A DNA stretch of 64,000 nucleotides, from assembly GCA_008632985.1 (NCBI GenBank), contig QPGO01000024.1:511848-575847 (forward strand). The letters are read 5' to 3'. Position 1 is the stretch's first letter; every line of letters starts with the position of its first letter. A model generated the notes under the pieces. It had not been told where the DNA came from. It did no database searches and was given only the letters and a program-made list of their open reading frames with translations. The DNA comes from Psammoneis japonica (lineage: Eukaryota). The translations under genes were made by a program, and so were the position numbers. Positions 6,132 to 63,742 of the stretch are shown here, in pieces.

Positions 6132-6279
6132 CTTGTTTTGGAAAATGCCTTGTGCGTTTCGATGAAGAGTACGATGCCGCCGCATGGTTGCATTCGCAGT
6201 TTGCCGCAAAGTGCAATGCACATTATTTGTGATTGTGTGCCGAGGTGCGTTGAACCGAAAGGCTCGAAACCGCCGGCGC

Positions 6280-13300: not shown

Positions 13301-13370
13301 CAACCCTCGACCCTTTGGAGTGTGCTCAAGGAGTGGCATCTTCGGGAATCTAGACTTCCAGAACAGCATC
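10334..13370 (-). mobile_element. Ty1/Copia (CoDi-like) LTR retrotransposon remnant, internally deleted and 5'-truncated
   Basis: The 882-aa ORF 10608-13256 contains the Copia post-integrase segment GSRVWVREPGSRRSKLHPVPKKGVFLGC...NVRFDE. On the minus strand a polypurine tract AGGGGAGGT directly precedes TGTCAG (LTR start at 10493). The far LTR end (~10334) is tentative. No RT, RNase H or integrase core was seen. Confidence 0.75.
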
Positions 13371-20389: not shown

Positions 20390-20519
20390 GATTGAATCAA
20401 ACTTGCATATGTTACAATATACAAGCGAAGCAACAAACACAGGGAGACGAACATAAGCAACGTGATACGATAGAGGTAAAATGGAAATACGAGTACGGTA
20501 GGTGACAGCACTCCGGAGG

Positions 20520-23050
20520 CGGACGCACGATGCCAGACGAATAAAAGAGCACAACCAGGCCAGCCCGCCCAGCCATGCCCGCCATGCCACACCAGCCACC
20601 CCGCCCCAACGCAATGACCAACAACCACTTCCAACTTCTTTTGTCATGTTTTGGCCATGGCATGTGGACTGCTTTGCTTCGGCAATTACAGCAATTGACC
20701 AGATGCCATTGTCAGAGAAACAAGCTTTCAGGATTGCAGACGATGGGAAAGTCCAGCAAGAAGAAGCGCCAACGACAGGAGGTCAAAAGGGATCTGGAAA
20801 AAGTGCCAACCCCACAACCCTTGACGAACTCCATCCAAAGCAAACAAGAGATGGCATGGGTCAGAAGACCTCATCTTTGGCATCAGATCTCAAATGCCAC
20901 CAAGCAAGGAACCACTGAGTCCACACCAGCTCCGCCACTGTGGAGTCTCCAAGAAGAAGCAAGAAGAGTGTGTCAAGAAGCGTCTCATTGAAAAGGAGAG
21001 AGAATGACAAGAATCATTGCTTGCACTTGATGCCAGAGTAAGATGGCAAACTGTTTGACTCATGCCAAAAGGAATGTCATCAAGCTTTGTCTGGGAGAAT
21101 TTGAGTTGCTTGGCACAGCCAATTTGTGCAAACTTTGATCTGGCGTTTGACGTTTGATGTGTTGCACAAAAACAGGCTGTTCCTCTGTGATGCCATTCAG
21201 GCAGGGGGCATGAAGGTGTCACAAACTCAGGTGTCACAAACTCTCATTAGAAATCCAGAATCTCAACCTGTTGCCATTGGAGTTGCAGCTCTTTTCACAT
21301 CTCCATGGAGCACTTGTCCTGTGTCCTCTTCCAAGCAAAAAGATGGTGGCGAAGACCAAGCCATGTCACATCTCATCAGTTTGGGGCATTCCCATGAGGT
21401 TGCAAAGGCCTTGTGGTTGATGAGGCAACTGAGTTGCAATCTCAAAGAAAGAACTCACCAAACCCTGGAAGAAAACATGAAGCCTCATGTCAAGGATGGA
21501 CTTGTCTGCTCTGTGAGCTGCTCATCAATGCTTGTGAATTGAGCCAAACCATCAAATGCCAAACAGCGCTTGAAACAAGACCCTCTTTGTGGAATGGGCA
21601 AAATGAGTGTCAGTTGGCATTGACATTTGGGCTTGCTGGATTTTTCTTTTGTTGCAGTCTGTCACTCATTGTGAGGTGGTGGAGAACAGCTGTCAAGGGA
21701 CACAATGCGGGCATGCCATGAAGAGTTGTGCTCTTTGAGGAGTGTCTGGCAAGGACTTCCCAACACTGCCTTTGGTGATGCCATTGCCCAGCAGCACTCT
21801 TTGCCCTTTGCTGAACAACTGAACTGCAAACATGAGTGCACAGTGACAGCTGGACAAGAACAAGTGTGGCACAGTTCCACACATCGCATTGTTGCAGCAC
21901 GCAAGGGACACGGTGCATGGCAGCACATTTGAGACAAATGCCAAAGCACACTGCATGAGGAGGAGAAAGAAACACAAAGAAGGAGCTGCAGGCACCCAGC
22001 AAAAGAAGCAAGAGACTCTCTTTGGCAAAAAAGGCAAGGGCGGAACAACAGCCACTGCATGAGCTCCAGTTTGAGTGGCTGCATCAGTGGCATGTTCAAG
22101 GCAAATTGCATGCATTGTTGCATCTGCACTGGCACAAACCAATGAAGCTGCTGTTAAAGTGGTGCCCAGAGCTCAAAAAATGTTCAATTGAAACTCTTGG
22201 TCTGCCACAAAGAGTTGCCAAGAAAACAAAACAAGGGACCATGTTGGATCAGGGAAGTGTGTTGATGCAGCTGCTTTGGTTTGCGAAGATTTGCATGATG
22301 TCATGATTGAGTCATTGGAAGGGCAGATCCAACTTAACATGCAGCCCTGCCCATGCCTTGTGTTCAGCCTGCATGCACAAGGATGGCTGCAATCTGAGTT
22401 GAGGGAGGGGGGATTTGAAGGCCACACTCATCAAGCTGAGAAAGTGGCACGCAACATTTGTTCGCAAGAAACAATCTGTGATGAGAAAAAAGGTGGGTGA
22501 CACAAGAGGATGCAGGTGGACTGGCAAAGAAGGAAAGGAGCAAAACTGTGCCAAATTGGGCATTGTTGAAAGGTGCAATGAAGTGACTGAGGATTCTTGT
22601 GTGCAACGGGATGGACTCTTTTAAATGCTGGCTCCACTTTCTTGTCATGACTCTGTGACAGAACATTGCTTGGCAAGAAGTTGACTTGGATGCATTGACT
22701 GCATTGGCTTCCACTGTTTGTGTTGACAAATCCCAAATTGGAGTTTTGCTTGCTCCACCCAAGCACATGTTTTGTGGTTTTGGCAAAGAACAATGTTCTC
22801 CACTTGCAAGAACATGAGACACAGAGAGAGCTGGTCCTTCTTCGAGAATTCATCTCTGGATGTCCCACGGCAAAGCTCAGAACACCACAACTCAGCAATG
22901 ACAAGGTGCCACCAACCAATGCAATGTTCAATGGGGTGCATCCCTTTCTGCAGCTCCATGTTCTGCTCCAACAAACAGCTGCAAGGTGCGCCTCAGCAGT
23001 GCAGAACGCCACTCTCTGTGGTCGGAACGTGTCCAGAGAAAGAGAGCACC
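20520..23050. mobile_element. Unclassified degenerate TE-derived block
   Basis: About 2.5 kb with very few TA dinucleotides between two normal genes. No recognisable domain. Confidence 0.5.
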
Positions 23051-23461
23051 TGCTACACGTTGACTTGACAGAAGCGAAAGGCGTCGACACGCGAATTCGT
23101 GCAGTCTTGCCGGTGGCACATTGTCAATCTCCGAGCTACATTGCAATCTCTTTCAAATTTTCATGCTGCTGTAACTCAAAACTCCCTGCAACGTCCGTGT
23201 GACGTCAGTCTTGACGATGGCGGCGTTCCAGCTTTCCGCGCGCAAGCTGAGCTTTGCGTTGATGTTGATCGTCGAAGCCCGGAACTAACAAGTTCGCGAT
23301 CAAAGCGACGATGCCTGAGATTCAAAATGCCAGAAGACTGAAGCTGACAGCTGATAGCGATATTAATAACGAGAACCGAGCATCGTCTTGAAAGCTTCCA
23401 TCTGCTCAGACACATCGCCATACTTTTTCTTCGCTCTGAAGTATTTGTCTGGACGCGACAT

Positions 23462-32961: not shown

Positions 32962-33259
32962 GGTTGGTTCGTGCGCGCCGATCGATTGGATGAGAAGTGT
33001 GTGTACCGGGCGGTAGGTACTGTACCGTACCGTATGCCCCTGGCGCTAGCTGCGCTCACAGCATTGATGAGCATGGAGCTTCGGCCTGCTCGCTTGCGTG
33101 GTTGTTGTTGGTGGCGGCATTCTGTGATCGTTAATCTTGCGTGCATGCCCGCGCGAATTACTATCGCAGCCATACATCATGCTGTACCATTCAGCGCGGT
33201 ACAATGTGACATTCCGATTTGAATACCATATTACCGCTACGGCATGTACATTCAGCAAC

Positions 33260-36200
33260 AACCTTGCTGCCTCTGCTCCTTCCCCTTTGCCCAACATTGA
33301 GCTCTTGCTTCAGGTCCTTCACCCTGTTGATCCTTCTGATGTGCCTGCTGTCTCCCTTGCTCCCGATGTCATTCGTGACATCATCCTCAAGATGCTGCAG
33401 CACCATGAGAAATGCACCCCTGCACTCCTCTCTTTGCCCTTGACTCTTTGACACTCTCTGAAACCAACAAGCACTCTCGCCCCCACCAGAGTCAGTGCAC
33501 TTCATCCAGTCATGCCTGCAAGCTCTGCTCCCGACCTCCTCCCCTTCTGCAGTCAAGTCCTTTCCTTTCTTCTCCAAAAGTGGCATCTGCATCCTTTGCC
33601 CCACTTTGCTGAGCTCCACTTTGCCAGCACTTTGTCTGATTTCCCACATCCTTCCCACTCGCTGACCCCTGTTGTGGACAATCCTTGTGCTCGACACACT
33701 GCACTTTCACAATCCCCACCTGCAACTCCTTTGATGAGAAGGCTCTCGGCATTCTTGCTGGTCCAACCCTGACCCTTTGTGGCTCTTCCCCCTTTCCTGT
33801 CTCCTCTCTCATTGCCACTCCTTGCTTGTTGGCAAGATCTCAAGCCCTGCTGCCAACCCCATCCTGTGATCTTTTTGTGGCTGCTCTGCCTTCCTCAACC
33901 TTGTTGTCATTTGGCCATCCCAGCATCCCAACAACCTTGCCCAGTGACATCACACTGTGTTTCTGCTCTGCAAGTCTTCTGCATCTCTGCATCCTCTGAT
34001 GCTGTCTTGAATGCCCTTCTTGTTTGTGTCGCCAACCCGCCCAATGCTCCGCCTGCTCTGTCTCCCATTCTGGGCACTTCCACCACTGTCATTCCCTCAA
34101 CTCTCTTCTTGGCAAAACAACATGGGTTGTGATCTTTGCTGATTGCCTCAGGCTTCCTTTTCTCAGCCTGGCGTCAATCGCCTCCTCTCCACTCTGATCC
34201 TCCACTCTCCAACTCCCATTTTCTCTGCCCACGATGCTCTCCTGATCAAGCACAAGCTCTTTTTCTTTCCATCCCCATTTGCCATTGCTCTTTCAGATGC
34301 CAACCTGCACAACTGTGCCAGTTTCCCTTCCAACCTCTTCAATCCCACTCCAGACTCTTCTCCCAATGATGGTGCAGCCTTTCCATCCTGTGCCTCTGCT
34401 GCTCTTCAGCTGCCTGTGCCCTCCCGTGACTCCTTCTCTTGCCATGCTCTTGAGCTGCTTGCCCAAGACTGGCCACTCCCCAAGACCCAAGACCCACTCC
34501 TGACATTGGCCCTCCTCCCTTGTTTTGTCCTTCTGCCTGCCTGCTGTTGATCTGCTGAGCCTCCTCCCTCCAAGTGCCCTCATCCTTCTCCCAGTGCATC
34601 CACTCTTCCCATTGAGGTCCCTCCTGATCAAGTGATGCAGTCTGAGTCTAACGACTCTGCTGCTCCTCAGCAGCCTCAATGTGATGTGGAGCTCCTGGAC
34701 ACTCTCAACATCTTTGTTGCTGCTCATTGTCCTGCTCATCTCTCCAACTGGATGCCCCTCTGTGATGCTGCTGTCCTGGCCCTTGCCCCCAACTTTGACT
34801 CTCTCTGCCACATCATTGCCTTGTGGAACCCATCGGCACCCACACCCCACTGACCTGCCCCTTTTGTTCCTGGTCTCCTTTGTCCACAGATTCATCTTCT
34901 CTCCCTGCTGCTGTGCAAAGTCACCTTTGCCAGGAGCATTCCCATTTCTCCCTTTTACAAGCACCTGCTGATTTTTTAATGCTGCTGGTTTGCATGTCTG
35001 CAGACATTGCAATCACAGCCAACACACCCACCTTTCTCCTGCACACCTCAACAATCACCTGCAAAATGAGCACTTTGCTCCCCACAGAACCCTCAATGTC
35101 AACATTGTTGCCTCTTCCCTTTGCAATGTTGGTGACTGGCACTCCTCTCTTTAATGGCTCTGCTCTCTTGTGCCTGCACCCCCTCCCTTCTGAGCCTCCT
35201 CCCACTGCAAACTCTCCTCTTCTGTCCACAAGGAACTCTGTGCCGCCCTTCATCATGTGCTTTGATGGGTCCTTGCCACTTGTCAGCCCTTTTCTGAACC
35301 TGCTCATCTCACACCTCAATGGCAATGCAATTCTGTGCCCTTTTGCAAGCTGCTTCTGCTCTTCAAGGCTCTCATCCTTGCCCCCGTTCCCCAGTGCTCC
35401 AAATTTGGCCCTGCCACAGCCTCTTGTCTGGCTCTCTTTTGCCGTGGATGCATCTGTCAGCTCTGCAAAGATGCCTGCTCCTTCCCATCATGCTCCTCTT
35501 CTTCTGGCTCCTCTCCCAACTTCTCTGCTTCCACCTGCTGTCACTGCACCAAAGTCTGTGCTGACAAGGATGACTTTCACTCAGCCTGTTCCAAACTCAC
35601 CTGCACACTCCCTGTTGCCACCGTTGCTCCTCAGCGCCTCCCTGAGATCCTCAAGCTCTGCCCTCCTTGCCTTCATCCCTCCCAACATGCCTGATGCTCC
35701 CTCTGCTTGCTCAGCCTCTTCTCTTAAAAATGAGCCCATTGAGCTTTCTGCCGATGCTCTTCTTTCTGCTCTTTTCAAGTGCAAACCCAGCACTGCTGCT
35801 GGCGTGTTTGGTGACTCCACCAATCTTCTCAAGTCCTGTGTTCTCTGCTCCACCAAAACTCCCACTGGCAACTCCCACTGCCCCTGTTTGCCTCCCTTTT
35901 GAGAACTCCTCCTCCTTCTCCTTCATGGCTCTGTCCCTCCTTCTGTCCTCCCCTTGCTTGCCTCCAATCACTTTGTTGCCACTCACAAGGACCCTGATGA
36001 CCTTGACAAGCTTTGCCCCGCAGGCATTGGCATGGCCCTTTGCCACACAACTGCTGGCTCTGTCATTGTGACTCTTTTTGTTTCTGACTTTACCAAATGC
36101 TTTTTCCCTGATGGTCAATTTGGAGTTGGTGTCAAAGGTGGTCTTGGCTGCATTGTTCACTCCACTCATGCCAAACATTGAATGACATCTTTCCACTGCT

Positions 36201-38340
36201 GACCCTGCCAAAGCTCTTCTGCTCCTCAATCTTGTCAACATGTTCAACAAAGTCTCCCGTGATGCTTGCTGTCACCTTCTTGCCTCCATCAAGGCCTTTC
36301 ATCTGCTTTTCCCATTCTTTGATCTCGTGTGTCAGTGCTCCAATGACTGCTGGTGCCATCACTCCAACTCTGCTTGGCCCCCTTTGTTCAAGAAGAAGGC
36401 TTCGCCCAAGGCTGCCCCCTTCTTGGCCTGTCTTTGCTGAACTGGTCCTTTCCCTTGTTCTCTGCCCACTTGACAAAGAACTCCTTGAGTGCATTCCTGG
36501 TTGCTCTTCCACCTCTGTTTGCTCTCACATCAATGATGCACACACCTTTCTCTCTCATTGTGCTCTTCCATGGTCCCTCAACGCTTCTCTGTGCTGGGTG
36601 CTCCCTGCTGTGGCATCACCCTTGGCCTCCACAAAACCAAGATCCTCACCTCCATCACTGGCATCAGTTCATCCCCACTCTCCCTCCCTCTCAAGCAGGC
36701 CCTCTTTTTGTGCCGCTCTCTCATGTCTCAACCCTGTGCATGACCCTTGTTCCTGCAACTCGGAGCTCACTTCAGGAGTCCACTTCCTTGGCCAGCCCCT
36801 CAACTCCCAAGACTTTGCCAACTGCTTCCTCTCTGCTGCCTCCTCTGTGCTCTCAGACAAAGTTGGCAAGCTCCTCACCGCCTTCACAACAAACAAACCC
36901 AAGCCCAACTCTTCAAGCACTGCTTCACTCCCTCCTCCACTCACCTGCTTGGCACCAGTTTCCACCACAACTTTGACCCTGGCGACCCTCCTGATCCCTT
37001 CCTTTGGACCTCTTCCTTTCAAGACTCTCTTCTCACTGCCACTCATTGACTCCTTTGCTGCGCTGTCTCCAGTGCTGATCCTCTCCCAAATCATTCCCTT
37101 GCCACTGCTTTCCTCCCTGCTTTGCTTGGCGGGCTTTGGCCTCCGAGACCCAGCAGCTGCTTCCATCCCTTTCTTCCTGGTTGCTCTCCTCTGCTCACTC
37201 CACTTTGCATTTCATGGAGTCCAACTGCCATCTGGCAACACCATTGCTCTCCCTCACTGTTTCAGGCTGTTTTGGTCCTCCTGGAACAACCCCCACTTGA
37301 CCTTGCACCTCCACAAGATCTTCTGCTCCTGTGCCCCCACTCTTGCCTCCACTTCCACCCTTGCTGCTTCTTCCCTGGCTGCTCTTGTCAAATCTGCTGC
37401 TCTTCCTGGCCTGGCACACCATCTCCATCACAAGCACCAGCAGCAAATTGCTGCCTCTGCCCTTGCCAATGCTCCCCCTGATGTGCAAGTCTCCCTGTCT
37501 TCCCTGCTGTCTCCACTCACCAGCCTTCCTCTGCGCTCCCTTTCCATCACTTCCAGAGCTCCCACCATGCCTCTGATGCTTGCACCATTGCCACCCAACA
37601 CAAAAACTCCACCTCCCTGTCCTTCCTCCCTCTCTTGTTGGCACACCCTGTGGTGGTCTCTCAACCCTCAACACTTGTGACAATCATGCCTTCTCTTGCC
37701 ATGGTGCTCCTCCTGGTTTGCCTGCTCTCTCTTCTCCCTTTTTTGCCAAGGCACACCATGTGAGTGCAAGATTGAAATTCCATGGACCCTCTGCTTCCTC
37801 TTCTGACAGATCCCTTGTTGTTGCTTTGCTCAAAATGACAGCATCTGCCTCCTCCCTGTTGCAATTGATCATTTTGGTGGTCTTGGTTTTTCATGGATTC
37901 CTCTTTGGCTCTTTGCTCTCCTCCACCTGCTCTCAGCCCAAGCCCCCTTGGTCCTCCTCTTCTGACCTGCAACACTCCAATGCCTTCTGCTCAGCCTTCC
38001 TCTGTGCCTTGGCATCTCTCTCTGCCCTTTTTCTTTTGTCTGCCAATTTTGCTTGGGACCAAATTTCCAGTGACTGCTTTGGCAGCACCCCTCATGCTGC
38101 CTCTCCCTCCAGTGGGCCATTCAAACACTTGGCCACAACCTCATTCATCACCCATCTCTGCATGCCCTCCACTTCACCTCCTTTCTTCCCTGCTCCTGCA
38201 TCCCCCACTCCCTCCGCCAAATGCCCTGCATCCTGCATTCTGTGCCCTTTCTACAGCCACTGTCACAACTGCAACTGCTTCTGTGCCTCCTTCTGCTGTC
38301 ACCATCCACTCTCCAAGGGCTCTTTAACTCTGCATTTAGT
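33260..38340 (+). mobile_element. Degenerate, near full-length CRE-clade-like non-LTR retrotransposon
   Basis: RT motifs AAGVFGDSTNLL (~35795), HKDPDDLDKLCP.GIG (~35985), QFGVGVKGG, LLNLVNMFNKVSRD, QEEGFAQGCPL (~36390), HIND for YIDD (~36526) and GVHFLGQPL. GFGLRDP follows. The C-terminal WDQISSDCFGSTPHAASP is homologous to the end of the element at 1-2359. Confidence 0.85.
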
Positions 38341-39920
38341 TTAAAAGGAAATGTTGACTGCTGTCACCAAAACAGTGAAACCAGTGGAAAACAATGTGAA
38401 CCCACAGCAGCTCAAATTGAAAACAAGAAATCAGTGAAGTGCCACCACACCTCATCATTCCCCATCAAACTGCCAGGCCAAAATGATGTGAGAGACATCA
38501 AAGAGATGATGTGGTGCCCCACTTTATTTCATCTTGCAAGACAAAGACAGGGGACATCATGAACTTTTCAGCAACAAGCAGCAGTGGCAGAGTGATTTGT
38601 GCTGTGCTGAGAAAAGAGCACAAGAGCAGCAAAAGGGAACAAGAGGTGCACACCCCCAGCCCCCCTCAGAGCAACAACTGCACCACTTTGAAGAGAGAAG
38701 AGGTTTCAGCCTGCAGCAGCTGCAACCACATGTGCACAAACAGCAATGACTCATTTGCAAAAGAGAAGAGAATTGTGACCCTGGTCAAAAAGCTCAGTCA
38801 CTGTGGGAAGTGCCAGCAGGCCATCTCTGGCCCAAGCTGCTGTCATGTTAGGCAGCATGAAAATGCTCCTCTGCAGAGACTGCAAAGAGCCACCCAAGGA
38901 AAGCTTGGCTGAAATGAGCCCAATGATGTTCAAGCCACATTCAGCCAAAAAGTCCAACCCTCATTTTTGATGTGAACTCTTCCTTTCTTCACAAAAAAAA
39001 AACATTGCACTGCAACATTTGCACTCTTTGTGCCACATTGTGCTGCAGTCTCTGACCGGCACTCTGGTTGACATGCAGATTGTGATGACAATGAGGCAGA
39101 AGGACAAAAAGAGTGACAGGTGGTTGTCTCCCCCCCAGGGATTTTTGAGGTCAAGCTGCACATGGCATGGAGCAGCATCAAAAGTGCCAAGGAGCAGCTC
39201 AACATGTTGTCAGAAGCCACTGTGTTCTCAGAAGTCATGGGGCTTTGCTTGCAGCCATCAAATGACATGGCAGAGCCACAGGCACTTGTTGAGAGGCTAG
39301 AGAACAATGGCAAGGTGTGAGCCCCCCTGCAATGTGGGTGTGCTCCAGAGCCCTGGGTGGAGTGCCATGTGCTGACATTGGGCCCACAAAATTTTGCATT
39401 TGTTGACAAGCTCCACAGCACAATTGCGCAAGGCAGCACAATCTTCTGAGCACTCAAAGCAAACTCTTTCTGGCATGCTCAGCCACACTCTTCTTCAGAC
39501 ATTTAAAGATGCAACCAACTCACTTTTGTTCTTGAAAATGTCCAAAACAAACTGTTGCTGACTTCACAAAAAGCAGGTTGTTTGAAACAGCATTGAATGA
39601 GAGCACACCCAGAGATGAGCATGTGATTTTTGCATGGCTGGCAAACAATCAAAGATGGTTTCTGTCTCAGCCCAGCAATGCAAGGCCCAACCTCTGGAGC
39701 TGGAGTGCCCCACCTGTGTGCAAAAGCCAGGACAGGGAGGGTGGAGGTTCAGCCAAGTGGGGCAAAGCACCAAGCCAGGAGAGAATTTTGAAACACAAAA
39801 AAATTGTCAGGATTTGAGGGAGAGCAAGGCAGGGTTTAGGATGAGAGTGCAGCAAATCAACATGCAAGAGAGAGGACAAGAAGGACAGCATGCAGTTTTG
39901 TCCTGTGAGATCACATGTTT
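38341..39920. mobile_element. Unclassified degenerate TE-derived block
   Basis: Purine-rich and TA/CG-depleted. No assignable domain. Confidence 0.45.
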
Positions 39921-42444
39921 GTTGCTTGAGTCAACCCACCTGTCCCCCCCAGTGACCATGCCTCTGAGGATCTCATTGACACAACAGCAGCACCCATGAT
40001 GTCAATGACAGCAGGCAGCAGTCTTGTGCCTGGCTTTGGCCAGCGCTGTTGTGGCTGCCTGCAGCATCTGTGAAGAGCTTGAACAAACATGTGGCTGGCA
40101 GCTGCTGCCTCAGCCACTTCCTTGTTGTGCTTTGCACCAGCCACATGTTGCACTTGATGGATGATCAGCTGTGCTGGTTGACTTGTTCAAAAAAGTGGAG
40201 AGAGAAAGAGGAGAGAGGCTTCTCTCCCAGCTCCAAAGCCAAACAAACATCAACTTGAACGGCACCAAGTCTGTCCACCCCACAGCACATCAGATCTTCT
40301 AACAGCAAAAACAGCCTCAACCAAACACACACACACACACACACCTTCGCATCTTTTCAAAGAGGGAAGGGGGGGGGGGGGGGGCACAAAAAGTGAGAGA
40401 GAGAGAGAGCAAGATGAGTTGTTCAAATCAACCCACCTGTGTCCTCCCTGCAGCGGCCATGCCTCAGATCTTTTTGGCACAGCAGCACCTGCCATGTCAA
40501 CAACAGCAGCCAGCTGCTGAAGCCACCACAAAAGTGTTGCTCCTGTCTTTGGCTGGTGCTGCTGTGCCTGCTGCTGTCTGCGTCTTGCAGCTGGACAGGC
40601 ACTTTGTTGCTGTCTGGTTGCAAGCAGGGTTGCCAACACAGCCACTCTTGAAGACAACAGTGATCACAGTTGAAGAATGTGCATCCAATCCACATTGACC
40701 CACACACATTGGAAACCATCCAAGAGCACCCAGTGCCAGCCTGCCACCTCAAAAGACAAACTTGCCAAGCTTTTCATGAAGTGCAAACAAAGAGTCAACC
40801 TCCTTCCACACCAACGTGAAACTCTTGCTCATCTGCAAAAATGAGATGACTTGTTGTTGCACAGAAAAGCAAGAATGGCTTTCCACAATCAACTTGAGAA
40901 CATTGCTCTGTGTGTTTTTGACACCCATCTGAGCAATCTGAGCAAATGTCAAAGCCATGCTGCACCAAGCATGGATTCAAAATCTTGCCCGCAAAACTGG
41001 ATTGCCACGCATGAAGGCAACCTCTCCCCAGTGGAGTGCAAGTGCTTGAAATGTCAACTTGAGAGATCAGGGAAACCCCATTTCCCATCTTCTGCTTGCC
41101 CTGAACATTCGCAACCCCCCCACTGCTGTGGCCCCAATCACATTTGCCAGTGGCAGCCTCTTCTGTGGCCTGGGCATGTGGTGGGCAGATGACAAGCTCC
41201 AACGAGCCACACGGAAACAATGGCTGCAGCTTGAGAGCTCTTTTGACCTGACCTCAAGCAAGAACCAACCCAAATGCTTGCACCACCAAACTGCCTCATC
41301 ATCACATTCTCCAATGCCAAGGCCTGCTGTCCCAATGTGCTTGCCACCAAGGCACTTTGAAAATCTCTGCCCACCTCCAAAGCAATGAAGCTCTCTGTCA
41401 AAACATGCCAATGAATGCTCTCATTGAGGCCCTCTAAATTGTCATGTGCAACAACATCTTTGGGGCCCTGCCTTTGGCAACACTGTCTGGCATCATTGCA
41501 ATGGAAGAACCACCATGGGCACACCACCCACCCACCCCAATGCAATGTTGTGCTGTGCCATGCGCAAAAACGTGCTTCTGGAGGAGTCAGCTCCAACCTT
41601 GTTGCTCACCACAAGCAATTCATTGACAACATCTTTGGCACTCAAAACACCACCAACCCTTCCACCAACCCTCCTCTTGGAAGCCTTTGTCTCAAGACTG
41701 AATGACTTTGAGAGATGAGCTGGGTCGCCAGCCCCAGACCCCACTTCATGGACTTCATGGACCTCATGGACCTCACCATGTCCCTGCAAATGTCCCTGCA
41801 AAGCTCAAGAATTCACACAACACCCTCTGCAAACAGAGCCATGAACCTGCACCTCTGCATCCTGTCACACTCTGCATCTCAACAGCCCTCCAAAGTTTCA
41901 TCCTGCTGGGATGCAAACAGTGAGCACCTGCACATCCCATCACATTCAGCACATCCACCTGGAGTGCTCACTGGCCCAATTGTGGGCATGCCTTTTTGCT
42001 TCAAAAATCTTTGCTCCAACCCAGCCAACTCAAAAGCAAAAACAAAACTGCTCTGCCTCTGACCGCAAGCTCAAGAACTCAAGCCCAGCAAGCCACAACC
42101 ACTCTCTTCCAAAAAGCACACAACCGGCAATGTGACAAGAGTGGAAAAGCTCCAGTCAAACCTTGTCTTCCTGTGCATCCTGTGCCACCACTTGAATGAC
42201 CTGTGCCATTGGAGCAAACTTCAGAAGCTGTGGAAAGGAACAACGGCCAACCCTCCCTGTTCACAACCCCTTTTAAACCTCTGCAACCACACATGACAAT
42301 GCACTGGACTCAACTGCATGATTGTCTGTTGCAGCCACACTTGCCACTTGTGTGACCTTGGAAACCTTCACTCATGCCACAAACTCCACACCTCCCACAT
42401 GCCCCCCCAGCTGTGTTCTGTTAGATTGCAAACAGGGAGGCCAC

Positions 42445-42485
42445 TGAGAGAGAGAGAGTTGTTTGAGAGAGAGAGAGAGTTGTTG

Positions 42486-42537
<52 letters not shown>
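42445..42537. repeat. (GA)n microsatellite at the 3' end of a PLE copy (similar tracts at ~42638-42659, 42922-43009, 45358-45409)
   Basis: Directly visible GA dinucleotide runs. Confidence 0.95.
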
Positions 42538-42540
<3 letters not shown>

Positions 42541-42977
42541 GGACTGTCCAAACAAGCAGCTCCGCCTCAGCCACTTGCACTGTTTGTTGGTCACATTTGA
42601 TGGAAAATTGGCTTTGCCAATTTTGTTTGTTTGTTGGAGAGAGAGAGAGAGAGAGAGAGCACAGCATGGCACAAACCAACCTGAAAAATCAACTTTTTAA
42701 CAACACAACAACCTCAACTGTGAAGCAACAACAACAGCCAGAGCCACCATTGACAAAGCCACCACAAAAGCCTCACTCCTGACTTTGGCCAATGTTGTTG
42801 TTGCTGCTGCTGTTTGCTGAACAGTTGGGCGAAGATCCAACCAAGAAGCTCTGGCTGCCCTGGCCACTTTCTGTCCACTTCTTTGTCTCATGTTTGACAG
42901 AATGTTGTGTTTGTTCATTCAAGAGAGAGAGAGAAAGAGAGATTTGGAGAGAAAACAAATTTGATGATCATTCATTT

Positions 42978-43010
<33 letters not shown>

Positions 43011-43885
43011 TCAACTGGAAACTTTGCATCTGTCCTCTGCCCATCTGGCATCTTTTTGACACAACAGCTTTTGGCTCACATCAACAACATCAGCCACTGG
43101 CTGCTGATGAAGCCACTGTGAAAATCTCCTCCTGACTTCAGCCAACCCTGTTGTGCCTTGCTGCATCTGCAGTTTGGAAAAGATCTGAGCAGCAGCGGCT
43201 CTGCTTTGGCTGCTCAATTCTGCATTGGTCACATTTGGTGGTCACTTGTTTCTTCAAGAGAGAGATGGACAGACACTCAAATCAAGTGTCTGTTGGTCCT
43301 CCCCTCAACCACAAAACCACCTTAAATTTTTTTAATCTTTCCATTGTGATTGACCAAGCTTCGTGTGCTTCATGTGATGCTCTGCAAAAAGGAAATGAAT
43401 CTGTGTTTGTGTGCGCCACCTCACTCAGCTGACCCGCCTGAAGTGCTCGCTGGCATTGTTGCAGGCGTGCCAGTTCAACTCAAAAATCTTTGCTCTGATC
43501 CTCACAATGTGCAAGGAGCCAAGATGAAGCTGCTGCACAAAACTGCTTGCAAGCTTGCGGACATCAATCCAACACACTGAAACCAATTTTCCACAATCAG
43601 CATGGCCAGAGCAGCGCCCCACTCCAACCCAATCTTTCTCCACATGCCCTTCCATCCAAATGACCCACACCTTCAAGCAAACTTCAGAAAATTTGGAAAG
43701 GCACTGTGTCCCACCCCCTTCCACTCACAACCACGCTCTCACCTTGCAACTGTGCAGGACAACACATTGGCCTGGACTGCATCTGAAGTTGCTCACGCAA
43801 CCTCAGGAACCTGCTGTTGCACTGCAAGCTTTGCGTCTCTGCTTCGTCCTGCCAGATTGCAGACAGAGAGGCCGCTGCATCAGCT

Positions 43886-43953
43886 CGTTTGTTCGTTCGT
43901 TCGTTCGTTCGTTTGTTTGCTTGTTTGTTTGTTTGTTTGTTTGTCTGTCTGTT
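43886..43953. repeat. (TTCG)n/(TTTG)n/(TCTG)n tetranucleotide microsatellite
   Basis: Directly visible. Confidence 0.95.
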
Positions 43954-43957
43954 TGAG

Positions 43958-43992
43958 AGCTGATGAAGCCACCGCGAAAGTCCCACTCCTGA
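43958..43992 (+). ncRNA. Putative minimal type I hammerhead ribozyme motif (PLE-associated)
   Basis: CTGATGA-A-GC(CACC)GC-GAA-AGT(CCC)ACT-C gives the core boxes, a 2-bp stem II, a 3-bp stem III and a CUC cleavage triplet. Degenerate copies at ~40514, ~42750, 43104 and 45568. Confidence 0.55.
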
Positions 43993-46601
43993 ATTTGGCC
44001 AACACGTTGTTGTGCCTGCCACTCATCAAACAGTTGGACAAATGTCCAAACTGGTCTGCCTCAGTCACTTGCGTTGTTTGTTTGTCACATTTGACGGAAA
44101 ATTGGCTCACCCAATTCTGGTTGTTTGTTCGTTTGAGAGAGTGACCAACCCATGACCGACTGGAACTCATTGCCGGCACACCGGCAAGGTTGTTTTCTTT
44201 CACATTGATCTTTGAATCCACCTGTCTGTCCCAAGCTCCAGAAGGTTGCTTGCCACTGATGACCACACTTCAAGAGCTCCCTGGACCTGAAACAAAAACT
44301 TGTCAAAATGAAGATGCCACCAAATTGCCTCGCCCTGCTCACATCTGATGCCGAGGCCCACTGCTCAACACACCTGCCAACAAAGCATTTTGATTTTGAT
44401 TGCATCCCATCTTTGATGTCATGAAACAACTGCAACAATGCACCGACAGATGCTCTCATCAAAGCCCTCCAAATTGTGATGGAAAATGAGGTGTTGACAT
44501 TTGGAGACACCGCCTGGCACCAGCACAATGGAGCCACCATGGGCACACCACCCGTCCCTCCACACACTGCATTGTGCTGCACACTCCACAAAGACATGCT
44601 CTTGGAGGAGTTTGGCTCCCAGTTGTTTTGCTGCAAACATTTGTTGACAACATCTTTGGCACCTGGCACATCACAGACACCGCCACAGACACCACCACCT
44701 GGAAAGCATTCACCTCCAGGCTTGACAACTTTAACATTGCCTGGATCATGAGTGCCCGAAGCTGCCAAGTTAACTTTGTGGACCTCACAATCTCGCTCCA
44801 AGGCTCCCACCATTGTGCCACCCTCCATGAAGAAGAGGTGGACTTGTGTTTGCATGCTCCACCCAGCTCAGCTCATTTGCCTGGAGCACTCACTGGCCCA
44901 ATCATGGGTGTGCTCTTTCGCTGTAAAAATCTTTGCTCTGACACTGCCGACACAAAAGCAAAAATGAGACAGCTCTGCCTCCAACCCCAAGCTTGAGGTT
45001 GCAAGCCCAGCAAACTGCAGCCACTCTTCTGAAAGGTGTGTGATCTCATCTTTGGAAATGCAGCCAGAGCAGCTCAAGAAACCCAGTCGAATCCCATCTT
45101 CCTGTGCATCCCTTGTCACCCAAATGATCTGCCATTGAGTGAACCACAGCAACTGTGGAAAGGCACAATGGCCACCCCTCCCTGCTCACAGCCCCTCTCA
45201 AACCTTCAAAATCATGCTTGACAATGCACCAGCCTTGACCGCATGACTGTCTGTTGCAGCCACTTGCACAACCTTGGAAACCTTCTTTCCTGCTGCAAAC
45301 TTGCATCGTCCATGCCCCCCAGTTTCATCTTGTCAGATTGCAAATGGGGTGGCTCCTGAGAGAGAGAGAGAGCTCACTCACTCAAGAGAGAGAGAGAGAG
45401 AGAGAGAGATGATGATGGCAACTTTGAACTGAGTCACTCAAATCAACTCATCTGTCCTCCTTTGGAACTTTTTAATGCAGCAACTCCCACCATGTGCTCT
45501 GCCTCAGCTGCTTGCATTGTTCCATGTTGTTTGCAGCTCCTGCCATGTGAGCAACAGCAGCTGACCCCTGATGAAGCCACCATGAAAGTCTTGTTCTCCT
45601 GACTTCAACCAATGTTGTTGTGCCTGCTGTTCACTGAAACAGCTGGACAATTGTCTGATTGAGCAGCTCCACCTCAGCTGCTGGCATCATTTGTTTGTCA
45701 CATTTGATGGAGAGAGCGACCAACCCACGACCAAAACTCACTGCTGGCACCTCATTGCCGGCACACCGGCAATGAGTTTTTGTGACCATTTCGTTTCACA
45801 TTGATCCTCAAATCCACCTGTCTGTTCTCCCTGCTGCAATGTCCACACCTTGGATCTTTTCAACACAAGAGTTTCTCAGCCACCTCGCCACATCAACAAC
45901 AGCATCAGCTTCGGCCAACAATGTTGTTGTGCCTGCCATCAGCTTGACAGCCAGACAAATGTCCAAAAAAGCAGCTTCTGCCTTGGCTGCTCCTTGTTTT
46001 TTGTCAGTCATGTCAGAGTTTGACAGAAAATTGGCTGTGAAGAGTTTTTCATTCGTTCATTCGAGAGAGGAGTGGCCAACCTGCGACCGAAAACCATTGC
46101 CGGCGCACTGGCGACACATGGCTTGTTGCTCCACAGTGTGTTTGGAAGCATGTGTTTCAGAACTGCAGAAAGGACAATGCCTGCTTTTTTTCATCAATCT
46201 CATGGTTTGCTGTCAACTTCGGCTGACTCAACAAGTTCATCTTCTCTGTCGCTGTTGGTTAGGCAGGTGGAAACTACCTCGTTGTGCGTGTACGTTTGTC
46301 CGCACCAGCCGTTTCTGTTTCCCCAGCATCTCCAAAATTTCTCATCTCCAGTGTGCTAGCTATGTGAGTGCCGAAAACACCCCTTCGCTTTCCCGCCCGA
46401 CCGTGTCACAGTACATATTCCACGTGAGTTCTACGCCGACTTCAAGAGCAGTTGTAGCATCACGTCTTTCGTCTTTCGAATTGATTTGTCGACTAATCAC
46501 ATCTCACATACACCAGGACGGTGACAAAGAAGAGTATTTTCGGCATTGTCGACGCAAGCAATCCTACCCTTGTGCTTCAATACTGCCTTCCGACAACCAA
46601 A

Positions 46602-51250: not shown

Positions 51251-51479
51251 CGTGAGGAGCGCTGCAAGCAGAGAAGGTCTGGATTTTTTGTGTGCTTTTG
51301 TTTTGTGTGTGGTGTGCATGTGCCGCCGCCTTGCTGCAGTTTGGATATTTTCGTTTATTGCATATATTTATTGCTCCGTAATACATTTCAATATATTTTA
51401 AAATATAAATTAAAGACTATATTACTCTATTACGTATCCAGAATGAACAATCATCATTTCTAATCGTAATGACCCGTCT

Positions 51480-52820
51480 GCTTTCGCACGGTGTCCAGCG
51501 CATGCTTGCGCACAAAACTCTGTGAGTGTTTCTCTGTGAATGCTTCCCATTGTTGACGAACACAACAAGCAAAAGACAGGGTGTGTGTGTGTTCTCATCA
51601 TCATTTTGGAGTGACTGTGGCCAATTTGCTGTTGATGGCTCCTCATCACTGCAGCAGGAGAGTCTCAGTGGCGGCGGATCACTTTGCTGCTGGCTCGCTC
51701 TGCTGGCTGGTGTGCCGTGACCAGCCAGTGCCAGGGCCGCTCAAGCAAACAACCAACGATGCTGGTGACAGCCCACACAAAACTTCCAACAGAGAAGCAA
51801 CTTTTTAAAAGGGGCTCTCAGAGTTGCTTGGTCAATGGCGCTCTCAGAGGGAGCAGTCAGACGCACAAAAAGCACGGCTGCAAGCACAGCATGGCACAAT
51901 GTGACGGTGCTGCACAGAGTGTGGTGCACCACTGTGCTGAAAAGATGCAGCGCACCAAGAGTTGATCTGTTAACAAGGAGCAGAAAAAGAAACCACTTTT
52001 GCTCATCCCTCTTGTGGCACAGAAGTGACAGCATGGTGGCTGCACTTGCGGGGAACTGAACTTTGTCAAACCTTGCAATGGAAAAGAAGAAAGCTCTGTT
52101 GTGTCAAATCCCAGGGATGCAGCAGTTCAAAATGTTGATTGAAATGGAGACATTTTCATGGCACAGCAGAGGAGCAAGTTTTGACAATGGGTTGCACAAG
52201 CAAGTGCCAGTCTTTGTTTGCCGTGCAGAAAACTGCAGAGGAGGTGGCAACACAGATCAGTTCACTCCCAACATGAACAATGAAATGTCTTGTTTTGTCG
52301 CCCCCCCCCGTGCTTCTTCTTTGCTGCAACATTGGTTTCCCACATGCACTGTCTTGAAAGGTTCCATGCTGCAGCTTCTGCTCTCCAGGCAGCATCTTGA
52401 GGTTGAAAGGTTCTGCATCAACATTTGCATGCCACTGAATCTCAATGTGTGGCTTTCAAACCTTTAGAAACTTGCAACTGTGGATGAGGGGCACTGTCAA
52501 AGGGAGGGACGTGAACGTTCATGCTCCCAGACAGATTTTGTTGACAATTGTCAAGGATGACTTGATGATGCCCGTGCAGTGTTTGACCGATGGTGGGGAG
52601 GAGATGCACTCCACATTCCACCTGTCCCGTTCCCGAGTTTTTCATTCTCCAGTGACAGGTGCACTTCGAGAGAGCATTGGCCTGAACACACATGCATGCA
52701 GACGAATGAGACCACAACCATTTTGTTTCAGGTTGAAATCAAGCATGAGCAAGCACCTTTCGACGGGAATCGGAACATTTCATTTTAGACTCTCCAACCT
52801 TGTGCCAGGCTCAATACAAT
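51480..52820. mobile_element. TpA-depleted block (TE- or gene-fragment-derived)
   Basis: Composition matches the other eroded blocks. No assignable domain. Confidence 0.45.
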
Positions 52821-53288
52821 GACGAGCGTGGTAGACAAAAGAACATAGTGGCATCTCAGGCCTGATAGAGGGAAACCTTGGATTGTGGATGATCAGGAGT
52901 TGTGTTTAGCGACACTCTCTATCCTTAACGATCAGTGTAACTCATCTCAATTTGTCGGGCTCATTTTCTCAGGCAAAGACAGACAACGGCGAAGTGTAAG
53001 TTCTACGAATCGACACAAGTAAAGCGTCAGCCGGGATATCGTTATTTGTGTGCCGCGATATTAATAGCCAAGCTCGGAGCCACCGGGCTAACTGCACACT
53101 AGTGTGAATCGTGAAATGTGCGAAAGCGAACGTGGAGCGGTAAACTATGGTGCTGACTAAAACGTAAAGATTTGAATTGAACTATAATGTAGGGGGGCAT
53201 AGAGCCTTAATGCCTGTAAATGCCCACCGGGCAAAGTATGAAACTACATCTGCTAGAGGCAGACCAGTTAATGGTCAATATTCTTCTC

Positions 53289-60308: not shown

Positions 60309-60619
60309 GGTCGCTCAGTATTCGTGATACAACAATACACCTAGTAGAGGAGAGACCAGAGCGAGAGGGAAACGAAAGAAGCGTGGTACGGATAAGTACG
60401 GAGGAGCTGTCACGGTGTTCTTGTTGATCTCGTGTCTCGTGGTTGTTGGGTTGTTGACATTTTTTTTATCGACGACCTCGCGGCCGGCAGCCGAGGGTGC
60501 TATCCACGGCAACAGTACAGGATGTACAAGAAGCTAACGTATGTAGAAGCACGTACCGAACATACTACGCCATAAAAGGTTGTATTCATCATCCGGGTTC
60601 CAACGCATTTCGTCACGAA

Positions 60620-61430
60620 AAGTTGTCAACAATGAGGTGCACACAGGCACACAGGCGCACCGAGCTGCTGGTCCTCCCCCGCCTTCTCTCTCTTCCTCTT
60701 CTTGTGCACTCTTGTTTTTGTTGTCTGTTTTTTTCTCCTCTTCTTGCTGCTCTTTTGCTCTTCCTGCTTCTTCTGTTGTGCACAGCACCTCTTCTTGAGC
60801 CTTTTCTCCAGTGTGCCAGCCTGGCCAGGCTTTTTGTTGCTTGCAGCGACGCCCAGCGCACCAGTTTCTCACTCTCATCTGCTGGCTGGCCAACCCCCCC
60901 CTCTGCTGGCAGCCAAGAAAAAAGGCATTGCACATTGCTGCACACTGCAATGTCTTTGAAAGAGGAGTGAGGTGGACCTCTTCCCTTGCTCTCCATGGCT
61001 TGGCACCTGCTGCACGAGCACGCGGTGTTGAACAACAAAGCATTCAGAACACAGATGCAGTGCTGTGTGCTCAATGAAGAACACACCAGTGTTCTGATTT
61101 TGCTTTGAGCCCCAGCAACAGGAGCAGCCACCAGCAGGGCCCTCTTGCTCTGTGCTGACTCCACAAAAGGCTTCTTCTCCTGCCTGGCTCTTGCAGTTTC
61201 TTGTGCCCCTCCATTTTGCGGCCCTTTTGCAAGAAGAGGAGAGCATCAAACAAGAAAAGAAAGCAAACAAAAAGTGGGGCAGGCAGAGAGAAGGGTGTGT
61301 GTGCTCTGTGTGGAGGCGGGGCTTGGCATCATGCCTGGCACCACCAGACCCAGAGGAAGAGCCATGACATGCTGGGTTGGTGGGCCAGATCTTGTGCTGA
61401 CAGAATGGGGCTGATCTGTGAATTTTTGTC
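60620..61430. mobile_element. TpA-free degenerate block, unclassified
   Basis: Composition only. Confidence 0.4.
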
Positions 61431-61630
61431 ATCTTTCAGGTGCTCCAGGTGATGAGGACAAACAATTCTCTGGGTTCAGTTGAAACGTGTGTGGTGACAA
61501 GTTCTGGCTCCAGCAGTGGGATCACCAGCTGGGCTTTTGTGTGTTTGTCGTTGTGTTCATGGCGGAGGTTGCTTCACCGCGCAAGAGACAAACGCACATC
61601 CAGCAGGGCCCTGCCTGCTTGCTTGCAATG

Positions 61631-62842
61631 GACCATGGAGATTCGGAAAAATTGGTTGCACTGTCCATCTGTCGCCATGCATCCCAGATGAAAATCAGAC
61701 GTGGTGCAAGCAGCCAGTGTGGTGAATCATCGGCCGCGATGCCAAAAAGAAGACACTGTTGCACCACATCATCAAAAGAACATGGAGACAAGAGATCACC
61801 ATCATTGAGAGCTGCATCAATGATCTAAAGCACTGGTTTTTAAACACACAATTGCATTGAAACCCCCAGCAATCCCTCCATGAGTGGTCACCGGTCATCT
61901 CAAGATCCCGCCGCCGACGGTTGGTGTGTTGCATGGGCTCCAACCACTGCCAGTGCTGGCAGCACACAGGCTCCCACTGCCACCAGCACCTGCAGCAAAA
62001 GGCTCCAACTGCCTCCAGTGCTGCTGGCACACAGGTGCCCACCGTCACCACTGCTGGCAGTTGTGCACAGGCTCCCACCACCACCACTGCCAGCAGCACA
62101 CAGGCTCCCACTGCCACCACTGCTGGCAGCAAAACACCTCCAATCACCACCACTGCCAGCAGCATGCAGGGGCACCATCAACACCAGACAAAAAGAATCC
62201 AACCACCTTGAATGCCAGCGGCACCCACCACCACCAGATGGAAAGGACAGTGGTGCACAGGCTCCAACCACCGCAAGTGCTGGCAGCTGTGCAGGGTGCA
62301 GCCTCCCACTGCCACCAGTGCCAGCATCACACAGGGGCACCCACCACTGCCAGATAGAAAGGACAGCAGTGCACAGGCTCCAACCGCTGCCAGTGCTGGT
62401 GGCCACACAGGATGCAGCCTCCCACTGCCACCAGTGCCAGCATCATGCGGGGGCACCAGCAAAAGGCTCCTGCCGCCGCCAGTGCTGCCACATTCAGCCC
62501 TGCCACAATGTGCAGTCCAGCCCATAAATTTATGTTGAAAACAACACCGTCAGAGACGCCACCAATGTGACAGATCTCTTTCAAACTTTCCAACACATTG
62601 TCACATCTAGAAGCATGCACTGTGGCATGGCCACGGGAACGCACTGAAGATGCCGCCACCGCATCATCATCGTGAAAGTGCCATTTGCGCTGGCCTCACG
62701 CAAATTTGAATGAGGCCTGATTGGCGCAACTGCCATTTCAGTGTAGCCCCACGCAATGTCATGCACGTAGAATCCCACACAAGTTTTGTGAACGCATGGA
62801 AGGACAGGCCAAGTGCAACCATTTTTTCAAATCTCCACAGTC
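61631..62842. mobile_element. Non-autonomous TIR element (1.2 kb) inserted in repeat copy A
   Basis: Left end GACCATGGAGATTCGGAAAAATTGGTTGCACT matches the reverse complement of the right end, GACTGTGGAGATTTGAAAAAATGGTTGCACT. The host repeat resumes after it. Confidence 0.8.
61935..62500. repeat. ~33-bp degenerate minisatellite (GGCTCCCACTGCCACCACTGCTGGCAGCACACA) inside the TIR element
   Basis: Visible repeated GGCTCC.AC..C.AC.A.TGC units. Confidence 0.85.
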
Positions 62843-63742
62843 CATGCTTGCTGCTGCTGGCCAGAGCCAGCCAGCAGTGAGCAGCTGGCCAGAGTGGGTG
62901 CATGAAGTGTGAGCAGCCAGCTGGAGTGGGTGCAGTGTGGGCCTCTGCTGGCACTCTCTGGAGTGGAAGTGACAGATCACTCTTCTTCATCTTTCAGGTG
63001 CTCCAGGTGATGAGGACAAACACTTGTCTGGGTTTGGTTGAAAAGTGTGTGATGACAAGTTCTGGCTCTCTTGCAGTGGGATCACCAGCTGTGCTTTTGT
63101 GTGTTTGTCATTGTGCTCACATGGTGGAGGCCACTTCACCATGCAAGGGACAAGTGCACAGCCAGCAGGGCCCTGCCTGCTTGCTTGCAATGCTTGCTGC
63201 TGCTGGCCAGAGCCAGCCAGCAGTGAGCAGCTGGCCAGAGTGGTGGGTGCATTGGCGTGAGCAGCCAGCTGGAGTGGGTGCAGTGTGGGCCTCTGCTGGC
63301 ACTCTCTAGAGTGGGAGTGACAGATCATTCTTCTTCATCTTTCAGGTGCTCCAGGTGATGAGGACAAACAATTCTCTGGGTTTAGTTAAAACGTGTGTGG
63401 TGACAAGTTTTGGCTCCAGCAGTGGGATCAACAGTTGGGCTTTTGTGTGTTTGTCATTGTGTTCATGGCGGAGGCCGCTTCACAGAGCAAGAGACAGACG
63501 TACAGCCAGCAGGGCCTAGCCTGCTTACTTACGATACTTGCTGCTGCTAGCCAGCCAGAGCTAGCTAGCTAGCTAGCCAGCAGTGAGCAGCAAGCTAGAG
63601 TGGGTGCACTGCGGGCCTCTACGGGCACTCTCTAGAGTGATAGATCGTTCTTCTTCATTCGGTCTACTAAGTCAACTACATGTTCCATAGACCTGGGAAA
63701 AAATAGACTGAGCAAATGAAAGAGTCTTAGAGTTGTCTCATT

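Follow-up and report, generated by a model that had tools for sequence, protein, structure and literature searches.

Flanking Bases of Residual TA Sites in TA-Poor Blocks of a Diatom Contig Point to Context-Dependent TpA Hypermutation

Genes and TA-poor blocks in the window

The DNA analyzed here, hereafter the window, is a stretch of 64,000 nucleotides from Psammoneis japonica (assembly GCA_008632985.1, contig QPGO01000024.1, positions 511,848 to 575,847 of the forward strand). Our subject is a set of blocks within it that are nearly devoid of TA dinucleotides, and the flanks of the few TAs that are left there. Open reading frames (ORFs) of at least 150 amino acids (aa) in the window matched the GILT, NUDIX, DHHC, TauE, NOC3p/CBF, Ras-family GTPase, sphingolipid desaturase, PP2C, PfkB, cwf21, and AP medium subunit families. 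The AP-2 mu exon at 59037-59846(-) shares 93-95% identity with diatom proteins (Attheya, Trieres, Coscinodiscus, Gedaniella, Chaetoceros, Seminavis, and others) and about 70% with those of other stramenopiles. The window reads as gene-dense diatom nuclear DNA.

TA-poor blocks were defined by a density of at most 2 TAs per 300 bp, and 150 bp was cut from each edge before sites were counted. This segmentation gave seven blocks of about 30 kb in all, or 28.0 kb after trimming. The observed-to-expected ratio (o/e) of TA per 1-kb bin was 0.00-0.12 inside the blocks and about 0.5-0.85 elsewhere, genes included; the TA loss amounts to about 93-95%. The blocks, none of them assigned to a strand, are as follows.

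1..2236: TA-poor block, 4 TAs; C-rich on the + strand; weak RVT_1 match at 2-808(+), E 0.029, below the Pfam cutoff
6111..7530: TA-poor block, 7 TAs
8303..14644: less eroded TA-poor blocks; a 6.0 kb core has 35 TAs, including 5 TTAA and 2 RTAY (R, purine; Y, pyrimidine)
20500..23171: TA-poor block, 9 TAs
33233..46290: largest of the TA-poor blocks, a transposon-relic cluster holding the flagged interval (34950..45480); 29 TAs in 13.06 kb, CG o/e 0.02-0.36
51436..52831: TA-poor block, 7 TAs
60567..63386: TA-poor blocks, right edge within a 348-bp tandem array

The edges are abrupt, within about 30 bp: TAs occur every 5-30 bp until 33247, 60583, 8314, and 51467, and are then missing for hundreds of bases. 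For the largest block, the last dense TAs lie at 33232, 33238, and 33247, and the density returns from 46260. One edge falls inside a tandem array of 348-bp period (62858-63900), which is eroded up to about 63,300 and has normal TA density beyond, and homologous neighbors thus differ. The products in the two eroded 5' segments of this array are identical, a hint that duplication or gene conversion followed erosion.

Compared with other DNA of the window, the blocks hold 40.6 fewer TA, 42.1 fewer CG, and 70.3 more CA/TG per kb, the two losses roughly offsetting the gain. Judged by these shifts, both self-complementary pyrimidine-purine (YR) steps, TA and CG, have been converted to CA/TG in the blocks. 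The AA/TT density was unchanged (150.5 against 144.8 per kb), and no other A-containing step was comparably lost. Since AA/TT persisted while TA disappeared, the base at position -1 of the target A must be T.

The blocks themselves are, as far as their remnants can be read, transposon relics and not genes. Retroelement remnants were recognizable in three of them, namely 1-2236 (weakly), 8303-14644, and 33233-46290. The clearest pieces are the following.

12093..12380, - strand: retroviral/Copia-type integrase SH3-like domain (Pfam PF25597, E 8e-8), the only recognizable piece of ORF 10611-13292(-)
44380..45350, + strand: eroded, frame-shifted reverse-transcriptase (RT)-like frame with RT-type motifs in its translation, e.g., GATMGTPP and FVDNIFGTW
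41350..42750, + strand: paralogous eroded copy of the RT-like element, about 71% identical to the 44380..45350 element, with ruined RT motifs at 41.4-42.5 kb

The 894-aa ORF 10611-13292(-) gave 57 weak phmmer hits, mostly on residues 305-400 (about 95 residues, the integrase SH3 domain), and no match in a word-based protein search. A Pfam search at E up to 1 returned nothing for 18 of the 21 transposable-element ORFs tried and, apart from the SH3 domain, only weak matches (E of at least 0.029) for the other three. The RT-like frame at 44380..45350(+) had no Pfam match; the protein-atlas clusters nearest to the RT-like frames carry HTH_animal/RVT_1 in 11-26% of their members, which we take as a lead only. 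The two RT paralogs, compared over 41900-42500 and 44822-45412, differ by 130 transitions and 45 transversions, with 31 columns of CA/TG double difference. Within 33000-46500, 13 kb of dead transposon, 34 stop-to-stop ORFs of at least 120 aa lie on both strands. Such long chance ORFs are numerous in the relics because TAA and TAG have been lost.

Contigs assembled from run X1, which may be the source sample, reproduced the TA-poor sequence, differing from it at 1-5 places in each piece of 0.7-2.2 kb. Their depth was 2-20 times that of single-copy DNA over 33.3-38.3 and 41.8-45.7 kb and about single-copy over 38.4-41.7 kb; the latter stretch is single-copy at 80% likeness or more and is TA-poor to the same degree. 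A basecalling artifact at modified bases is unlikely, given that the k-mer contigs of X1 (depth about 60, with the same caveat on their source) carry the same sequence. A metagenome scan with a 20-base stretch common to both RT copies found six loci with normal TA and CG, dissimilar to the window, which we attribute to chance.

The + strand of two relics, 1-2236 and 33233-38336, is strongly enriched in pyrimidines (C 37-41%, G 13-16%, A 15-21%), and the RT-like reading lies on that strand in both. This purine/pyrimidine skew is beyond the reach of transitions alone. The repeated RT-like units are closed by (GA)n microsatellites at 42630-42650 and 45360-45410.

Residual TA sites and their flanks

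The original prediction concerned the interval 34950..45480 (unstranded), which holds 25 residual TAs, 13 of them TTAA and none RTAY. It had listed 11 TTAA sites there. All were found within 1 base, along with two more at 38341 and 43332. The positions are given below.

34976..34979: surviving TTAA (TTTAAT)
35151..35154: surviving TTAA (TTTAAT)
35724..35727: surviving TTAA (CTTAAA)
38324..38344: three clustered TAs (TTTAAC, TTTAGT, TTTAAA) where two relics of different composition meet
39503..39506: surviving TTAA (TTTAAA)
42273..42276: surviving TTAA (TTTAAA)
42697..42700: surviving TTAA (TTTAAC)
43322..43335: two surviving TTAA (CTTAAA, TTTAAT)
44731..44773: two surviving TTAA (TTTAAC, GTTAAC)
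45472..45475: surviving TTAA (TTTAAT)

The 12 other TAs comprise six CTAA/TTAG, three GTAA/TTAC, and one each of CTAG, CTAC, and ATAA, in line with the expectation of mostly TTAA, some TTAG, CTAA, or CTAG, and rare TTAC. GTAC, ATAT, and ATAC/GTAT, held to be almost absent, account for 0 of the 25. The share of TTAA far exceeds the 6% expected from composition (binomial p 3e-10).

The same pattern was found across all trimmed blocks, which hold 84 residual TAs in 28.0 kb, against 1399 TAs in the remaining 32.1 kb. The 84 comprise 26 TTAA, 16 CTAA, 10 ATAA, 9 CTAC, 8 CTAG, and 8 GTAA, followed by 4 ATAG, 3 GTAC, and no ATAC or ATAT. TTAA thus makes up 31% of the TAs in the blocks and 4.4% (61 of 1399) in other DNA (p 1e-15), while RTAY makes up 3 of 84, all GTAC, and 451 of 1399, respectively (p 1e-10). 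The comparison of NTAN frequencies (N, any base) suggested with the original prediction gave class distributions that differ strongly between blocks and other DNA (chi2 134, df 9, p 2e-24). The classes also depart from the local base composition of the blocks (chi2 113, p 4e-20), a match to which had been named as the contrary outcome. Genic DNA avoids TAA and TAG stops, so the blocks' own base composition and their own NTGN+NCAN pool were used as two extra baselines, and the order of the classes was identical under all three. As a fraction of the NTGN+NCAN pool, residual TAs amounted to 0.065 for TTAA, 0.025 for CTAG and CTAA, 0.006-0.012 for the mixed classes, and 0 for ATAC and ATAT. TTAA was enriched in six of the seven blocks, and the seventh holds only 2 TAs. 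The flank effect on surviving CGs was much milder, with ratios of 0.56-1.81. The excess of TTAA and the shortage of RTAY among the residual TAs are real and far beyond chance.

A TA step is self-complementary and is lost once either strand has been hit, so that only TAs with a poor context on both strands are left. We modeled this by giving the A of each strand a rate set only by its 3' neighbor and adding the hazards of the two strands. The additive model fits the ten NTAN classes (deviance 8.9, df 6, p 0.18), with hazards of 2.58, 2.06, 1.19, and 0.40 for T, C, G, and A, respectively, as the base 3' of the target A. A context-free hazard was rejected (likelihood-ratio test 106.5, df 3, p 6e-23). 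A steady-state model, in which births are divided by the summed hazards, gave a deviance of 11.6 and hazards relative to A of 11.8 for C, 3.5 for G, and 15.2 for T; the numbers change from those of the survival model, and the order stays the same. TAC was strongly hit and TAT at least as much, while TACG is confounded by CG decay. The fit bears out the prediction that A-to-G change falls in the order TAY, TAG, TAA and that survival needs a poor context on both strands.

That rule was incomplete in one respect, as the flanks extend further. Among residual TAs, T stands at -3 in 57% (28% elsewhere) and at -2 in 51% (20% elsewhere), and the 3' side mirrors this. Of the 26 surviving TTAA sites, 22 are TTTAA/TTAAA and 7 are TTTAAA, compared with 21 and 3 of 61, respectively, in other DNA. 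By these counts an A at +2 also protects, and TTTAAA is the refuge.

Counts of survivors cannot separate a rule on the 3' neighbor from a rule on the base at -2, since reading the opposite strand turns the one into the other. We therefore turned to the products at TT-TA-B (B, not A), for which a 3' rule predicts TTTGB and a 5' rule TTCAB. The TTTGB:TTCAB ratio was 451:187 in the blocks and 298:229 elsewhere (odds ratio (OR) 1.85, p 6e-7), and it exceeded 1 in all seven blocks. By strand, the ratios were 221:96 on the top (OR 1.97, p 1e-4) and 229:91 on the bottom (OR 1.74, p 0.002). Both strand ratios exceeded 1 in seven of nine sub-blocks, e.g., 49:20 and 25:3 in 33.4-38.3 kb, the exceptions being 1-2086 (top 10:10) and 51586-52681 (bottom 3:6). 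The excess of TTTGB makes the 3' neighbor the better reading. That single blocks show it on both strands speaks against RNA editing on one strand and for a change made in duplex DNA. Both strands of one element have, on this evidence, been hit according to local context. A comparison of tetranucleotide gains and losses with genic DNA had the right sign in most asymmetric contexts; it is confounded by ancestral composition and was replaced by the TT-TA-B test.

Aligned repeats gave a few direct comparisons. At two sites where an uneroded copy of the 348-bp repeat reads TTAG and CTAG, one eroded copy has CA and the other TG, and TTAC has become TTGC at two sites of the same family. Paralogs within the window yielded 16 comparisons of TA with TG/CA, which are too few, and pairs of only two copies cannot be polarized.

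Proposed mechanism and its alternatives

On balance, we think it probable that these transposon relics were subjected to near-saturating TpA-to-TpG/CpA hypermutation of duplex DNA under the flank rule, with deamination of adenine as the presumed chemistry. The mutator would act on both strands of integrated DNA and spare genes. Only an A immediately preceded by T would be a target, at a rate set by its 3' base (T >= C > G >> A) and lowered further where the base at +2 is A. The sites left over would be TTAA and, above all, TTTAAA. Chemically, a polynucleotide deaminase of the TadA/ADAT type, directed at silenced foreign DNA, would convert adenine in the DNA to hypoxanthine, as proposed for Bigelowiella natans.

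The closest known case is indeed that chlorarachniophyte, and its preprint holds the one description of TpA-to-TpG/CpA hypermutation that we found in the literature searched. In mutation-accumulation lines of B. natans, 231 of 302 nuclear mutations fell in two integrated viral regions; 230 of these were A-to-G or T-to-C, all 230 on TpA (Mettrop et al., bioRxiv 10.64898/2026.01.13.699255, 2026). TpA-poor B. natans genes are enriched for RT and DDE domains, and the authors propose an ADAT2-like DNA deaminase (10.64898/2026.01.13.699255). Shared with the window are changes confined to TpA that give TpG/CpA, seen here in composition and not as observed events, their restriction to foreign or mobile DNA, the remaining nuclear genome being normal (here seven sharply bounded blocks), and long-term TpA-poor, CpA/TpG-rich RT and DDE genes in B. 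natans. The two cases differ in lineage (a rhizarian there, a stramenopile here), in extent (a Rho of 0.45 in the region of nucleocytoplasmic large DNA virus origin there, near-saturated erosion with a TA o/e of 0.02-0.1 here), in the transposon relics as targets and the coextensive CpG decay found here, and in the kind of evidence, which is de novo events there and compositional here. A flank analysis (TTAA, context, flanking) was not found in the main text of the preprint (10.64898/2026.01.13.699255), and the consulted part of a mutation-accumulation paper on Phaeodactylum (PMC6604790) reports nothing of the TpA kind.

Other systems match in part. Repeat-induced point mutation (RIP), a genome defense of fungi, likewise destroys repeats in place through transitions at specific dinucleotides on both strands and leaves sharply bounded blocks of odd composition. 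RIP changes C to T mainly at CpA and so makes TpA, whereas here TpA is destroyed and CpA/TpG is made; erosion here also includes one stretch found to be single-copy at 80% likeness. Fungal RIP was rejected on direction: C-to-T change at CpA/CpG would raise TpA. The tRNA site of bacterial TadA is UACG, which the preference for a pyrimidine at +1 resembles. The same preference recalls the YAC context in which a TadA-8e variant is stated to edit A (PMC13109818). The requirement for T at -1 in the blocks, where only TA is lost, agrees with the near-obligate U/T of the TadA/ADAT family, for which mRNA editing in Fusarium graminearum provides the figure of 85.7% U at -1 (PMC4817773). That editing, ascribed to ADAT2/3, differs at +1, where A and G are enriched and C is lowest (PMC4817773), while here A is the most protected and T and C are the most hit; the substrate here would moreover be chromosomal DNA. 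ADAR hyper-editing shares the clusters of A-to-G change in repeats and the favored U at -1. ADARs are cited as having a graded -1 preference of U>A>C>G and a preference for G at +1 (PMC4817773); here AA is untouched, G at +1 is intermediate, and products lie on both strands. Hyper-editing of double-stranded RNA of the ADAR type was thus rejected as a candidate, both because AA is not depleted and the fitted hazards run in the order T, C, G, A, and because the one-strand products expected per retro-copy gave way to top and bottom excesses in the same blocks.

Several points weigh against the account favored here. The sample is small, with only 84 residual TAs, and the genic proxy for ancestral composition is imperfect since it avoids TAA and TAG, although the order is unchanged with base composition or the blocks' own YR pool as the baseline. 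The polarity of the changes depends on composition, models, and about 16 aligned sites. Of seven informative asymmetric events in aligned repeats, five fit the 3' rule and two do not. No deaminase family was matched among the 81 ORFs of at least 150 aa in the window, and context-dependent repair of inosine:thymine (I:T) pairs could yield the same flank pattern. The listed differences between the window and the X1 contigs in the single-copy eroded stretch are at CpG and not at TA, and an ongoing TA process is not indicated. Two further points, the close fit of a birth-only model and the sharpness of the block edges, are taken up below with the explanations that they favor.

The residual TAs might be newborn rather than old, having arisen after the end of erosion by ordinary C-to-T transitions of CA/TG, preferentially at pyrimidine-C steps (UV- or APOBEC-like); births of this kind would yield YTAR but no RTAY. 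With about 5900 CA/TG in the blocks, back-mutation of 1-2% would give tens of TAs, and the four TAs that can be aligned between the RT copies all have CA as their counterpart, in three cases as Y-CA. A birth-only Poisson model with rates by 5' neighbor of 4.2% for T, 1.8% for C, 0.3% for G, and 0 for A fits only slightly worse than survival on the same ancestral proxy (deviance 13.05, 6 df, p 0.04, vs 9.54). The further flanks do not follow from such births, however: T at -3 or A at +2 is found in 190 of 398 TCAA sources and in 22 of 26 TTAA sites (p 2e-4), and TTCAAA forms 30 of the 398 sources while TTTAAA forms 7 of the 26 (p 0.003). Paralog C/T differences outside YR steps show the opposite bias (22 of 263 after Y vs 42 of 216 after R, p 4e-4), and the excess of TTTGB over TTCAB is left unexplained. 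We regard newborn sites as an unlikely explanation. An equally unlikely variant keeps the flank rule and the DNA target and places the lesion on thymine, e.g., a T in R-T-A oxidized to a base that pairs with G, giving T-to-C. The data are symmetric in this regard, as an A followed by Y is a T preceded by R; yet nothing in the window speaks for thymine chemistry, and the sole published proposal for the signature, as far as the preprint text consulted goes, is adenine deamination (10.64898/2026.01.13.699255).

Change before integration, with retroelement RNA or single-stranded cDNA edited by an ADAR- or ADAT-like deaminase so that copies arrive already TA-poor, is quite unlikely in our judgment. 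Its best point is the sharpness of the block edges within about 30 bp, and the recognizable relics are retroelements; in addition, fungal ADAT2/3 is described as editing mRNA at UA (PMC11087585, PMC11156358, PMC4817773). Editing of one strand would give one product, whereas single blocks show the excess on each strand and one aligned repeat site has TG as well as CA. Removal of about 95% of TAs would take many cycles of an element without an intact frame, the stretch at 38.4-41.7 kb is single-copy at a likeness of 80% or more and equally eroded, one erosion edge (about 63.3 kb) lies inside a tandem array, and AA is untouched, unlike with ADARs. These observations together argue for a change in resident duplex DNA. 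The +1 preference is, moreover, opposite to that of ADARs and of fungal editing (PMC4817773), and the changes in B. natans are presented as arising in integrated DNA (10.64898/2026.01.13.699255). An error of a translesion-type polymerase during repair synthesis in heterochromatin can also be considered. Pol eta makes A-to-G changes at WA motifs, TA included. A WA mutator should erode AA as well, and here AA/TT is not depleted while TA is down 93%, which makes this source very improbable.

The process in the diatom is of the same kind as that first reported in 2026 in B. natans, and the flank rule appears to be new information. The 2026 preprint is the one prior report of a natural A:T-to-G:C mutator at TpA in chromosomal DNA, and the end state described here extends TpA hypermutation to a second, ecologically dominant lineage. 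It suggests a general algal defense against transposons and integrated viruses. A more far-reaching reading, which we offer tentatively and with considerable doubt, is that diatoms carry a dedicated adenine-deaminating DNA defense against mobile elements that have been silenced, with a preference, T-A-Y(not A), resembling TadA's, and that it is the same system as in Bigelowiella. Such a defense would stand beside RIP and APOBEC editing as their adenine counterpart and would be old and widely distributed within the SAR supergroup, and TAY > TAG >> TAA with a protective A at +2 would be its enzymatic fingerprint.

The flank rule provides a quantitative fingerprint for candidate deaminases that tells them from ADARs and from fungal ADAT2/3 editing, and its prediction for the de novo mutations published for B. 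natans can be checked. Base-editing work would also have an interest in a natural DNA adenine deaminase. The relics are also a trap for annotation, since the loss of TAA and TAG stops and of all tyrosine codons produces long false ORFs and lets relics escape Pfam and word-based searches.

CpG decay and other observations

CG is lost from the blocks along with TA, with o/e of 0.02-0.4, and its loss to TG/CA is, on composition, what deamination of 5-methylcytosine would produce. The two losses are uncoupled. At 11-13 kb (10430-13082), CG o/e was 0.66-0.69 with TA o/e of about 0.1; at 38-40 kb, the values were 0.02-0.03 and 0.05-0.09, respectively; and at 7-8.3 kb, CG was halved (o/e 0.47) with normal TA. 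CpG decay of the 5-methylcytosine type is, by this measure, a second and separate process, and it cannot remove TA.

Among the differences listed between the window and the single-copy contigs of X1 (40 of 749), seven CpG transitions lie within 38371-41772 and 43356-43467, as follows.

38747, 39057, 40045, 40582, 40678, 40852, 43467: CpG-transition differences, window vs X1

These suggest that CpG decay is still under way in the relics. None of the 40 listed differences (of 749) falls on a residual TA, a result that we treated as uninformative. Close to the block edge, at 46154, the window and X1 show one TG/TA difference, its context being GTAT.

C/T differences between the eroded paralogs (41350-45720 and other pairs) outside YR steps are concentrated after purines, above all at G-[C/T]-Y, with 28 of 132 columns compared with 8 of 138 after C. 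This excess may reflect a second context-dependent transition.

The contigs of another run, X2 (labelled 'DNA?'), skip 32299-32378 and 32595-32808, whose CT..AC ends are GT..AG on the - strand of the sphingolipid desaturase gene, as well as 46942-47062, which has GT..AG ends. The run behaves like spliced RNA: genes are covered, and the bins from 33268 to 46308 are uncovered save for a value of 2.43 in the bin 37804-38370. It was not used as evidence. The window contains a single N, at position 772.

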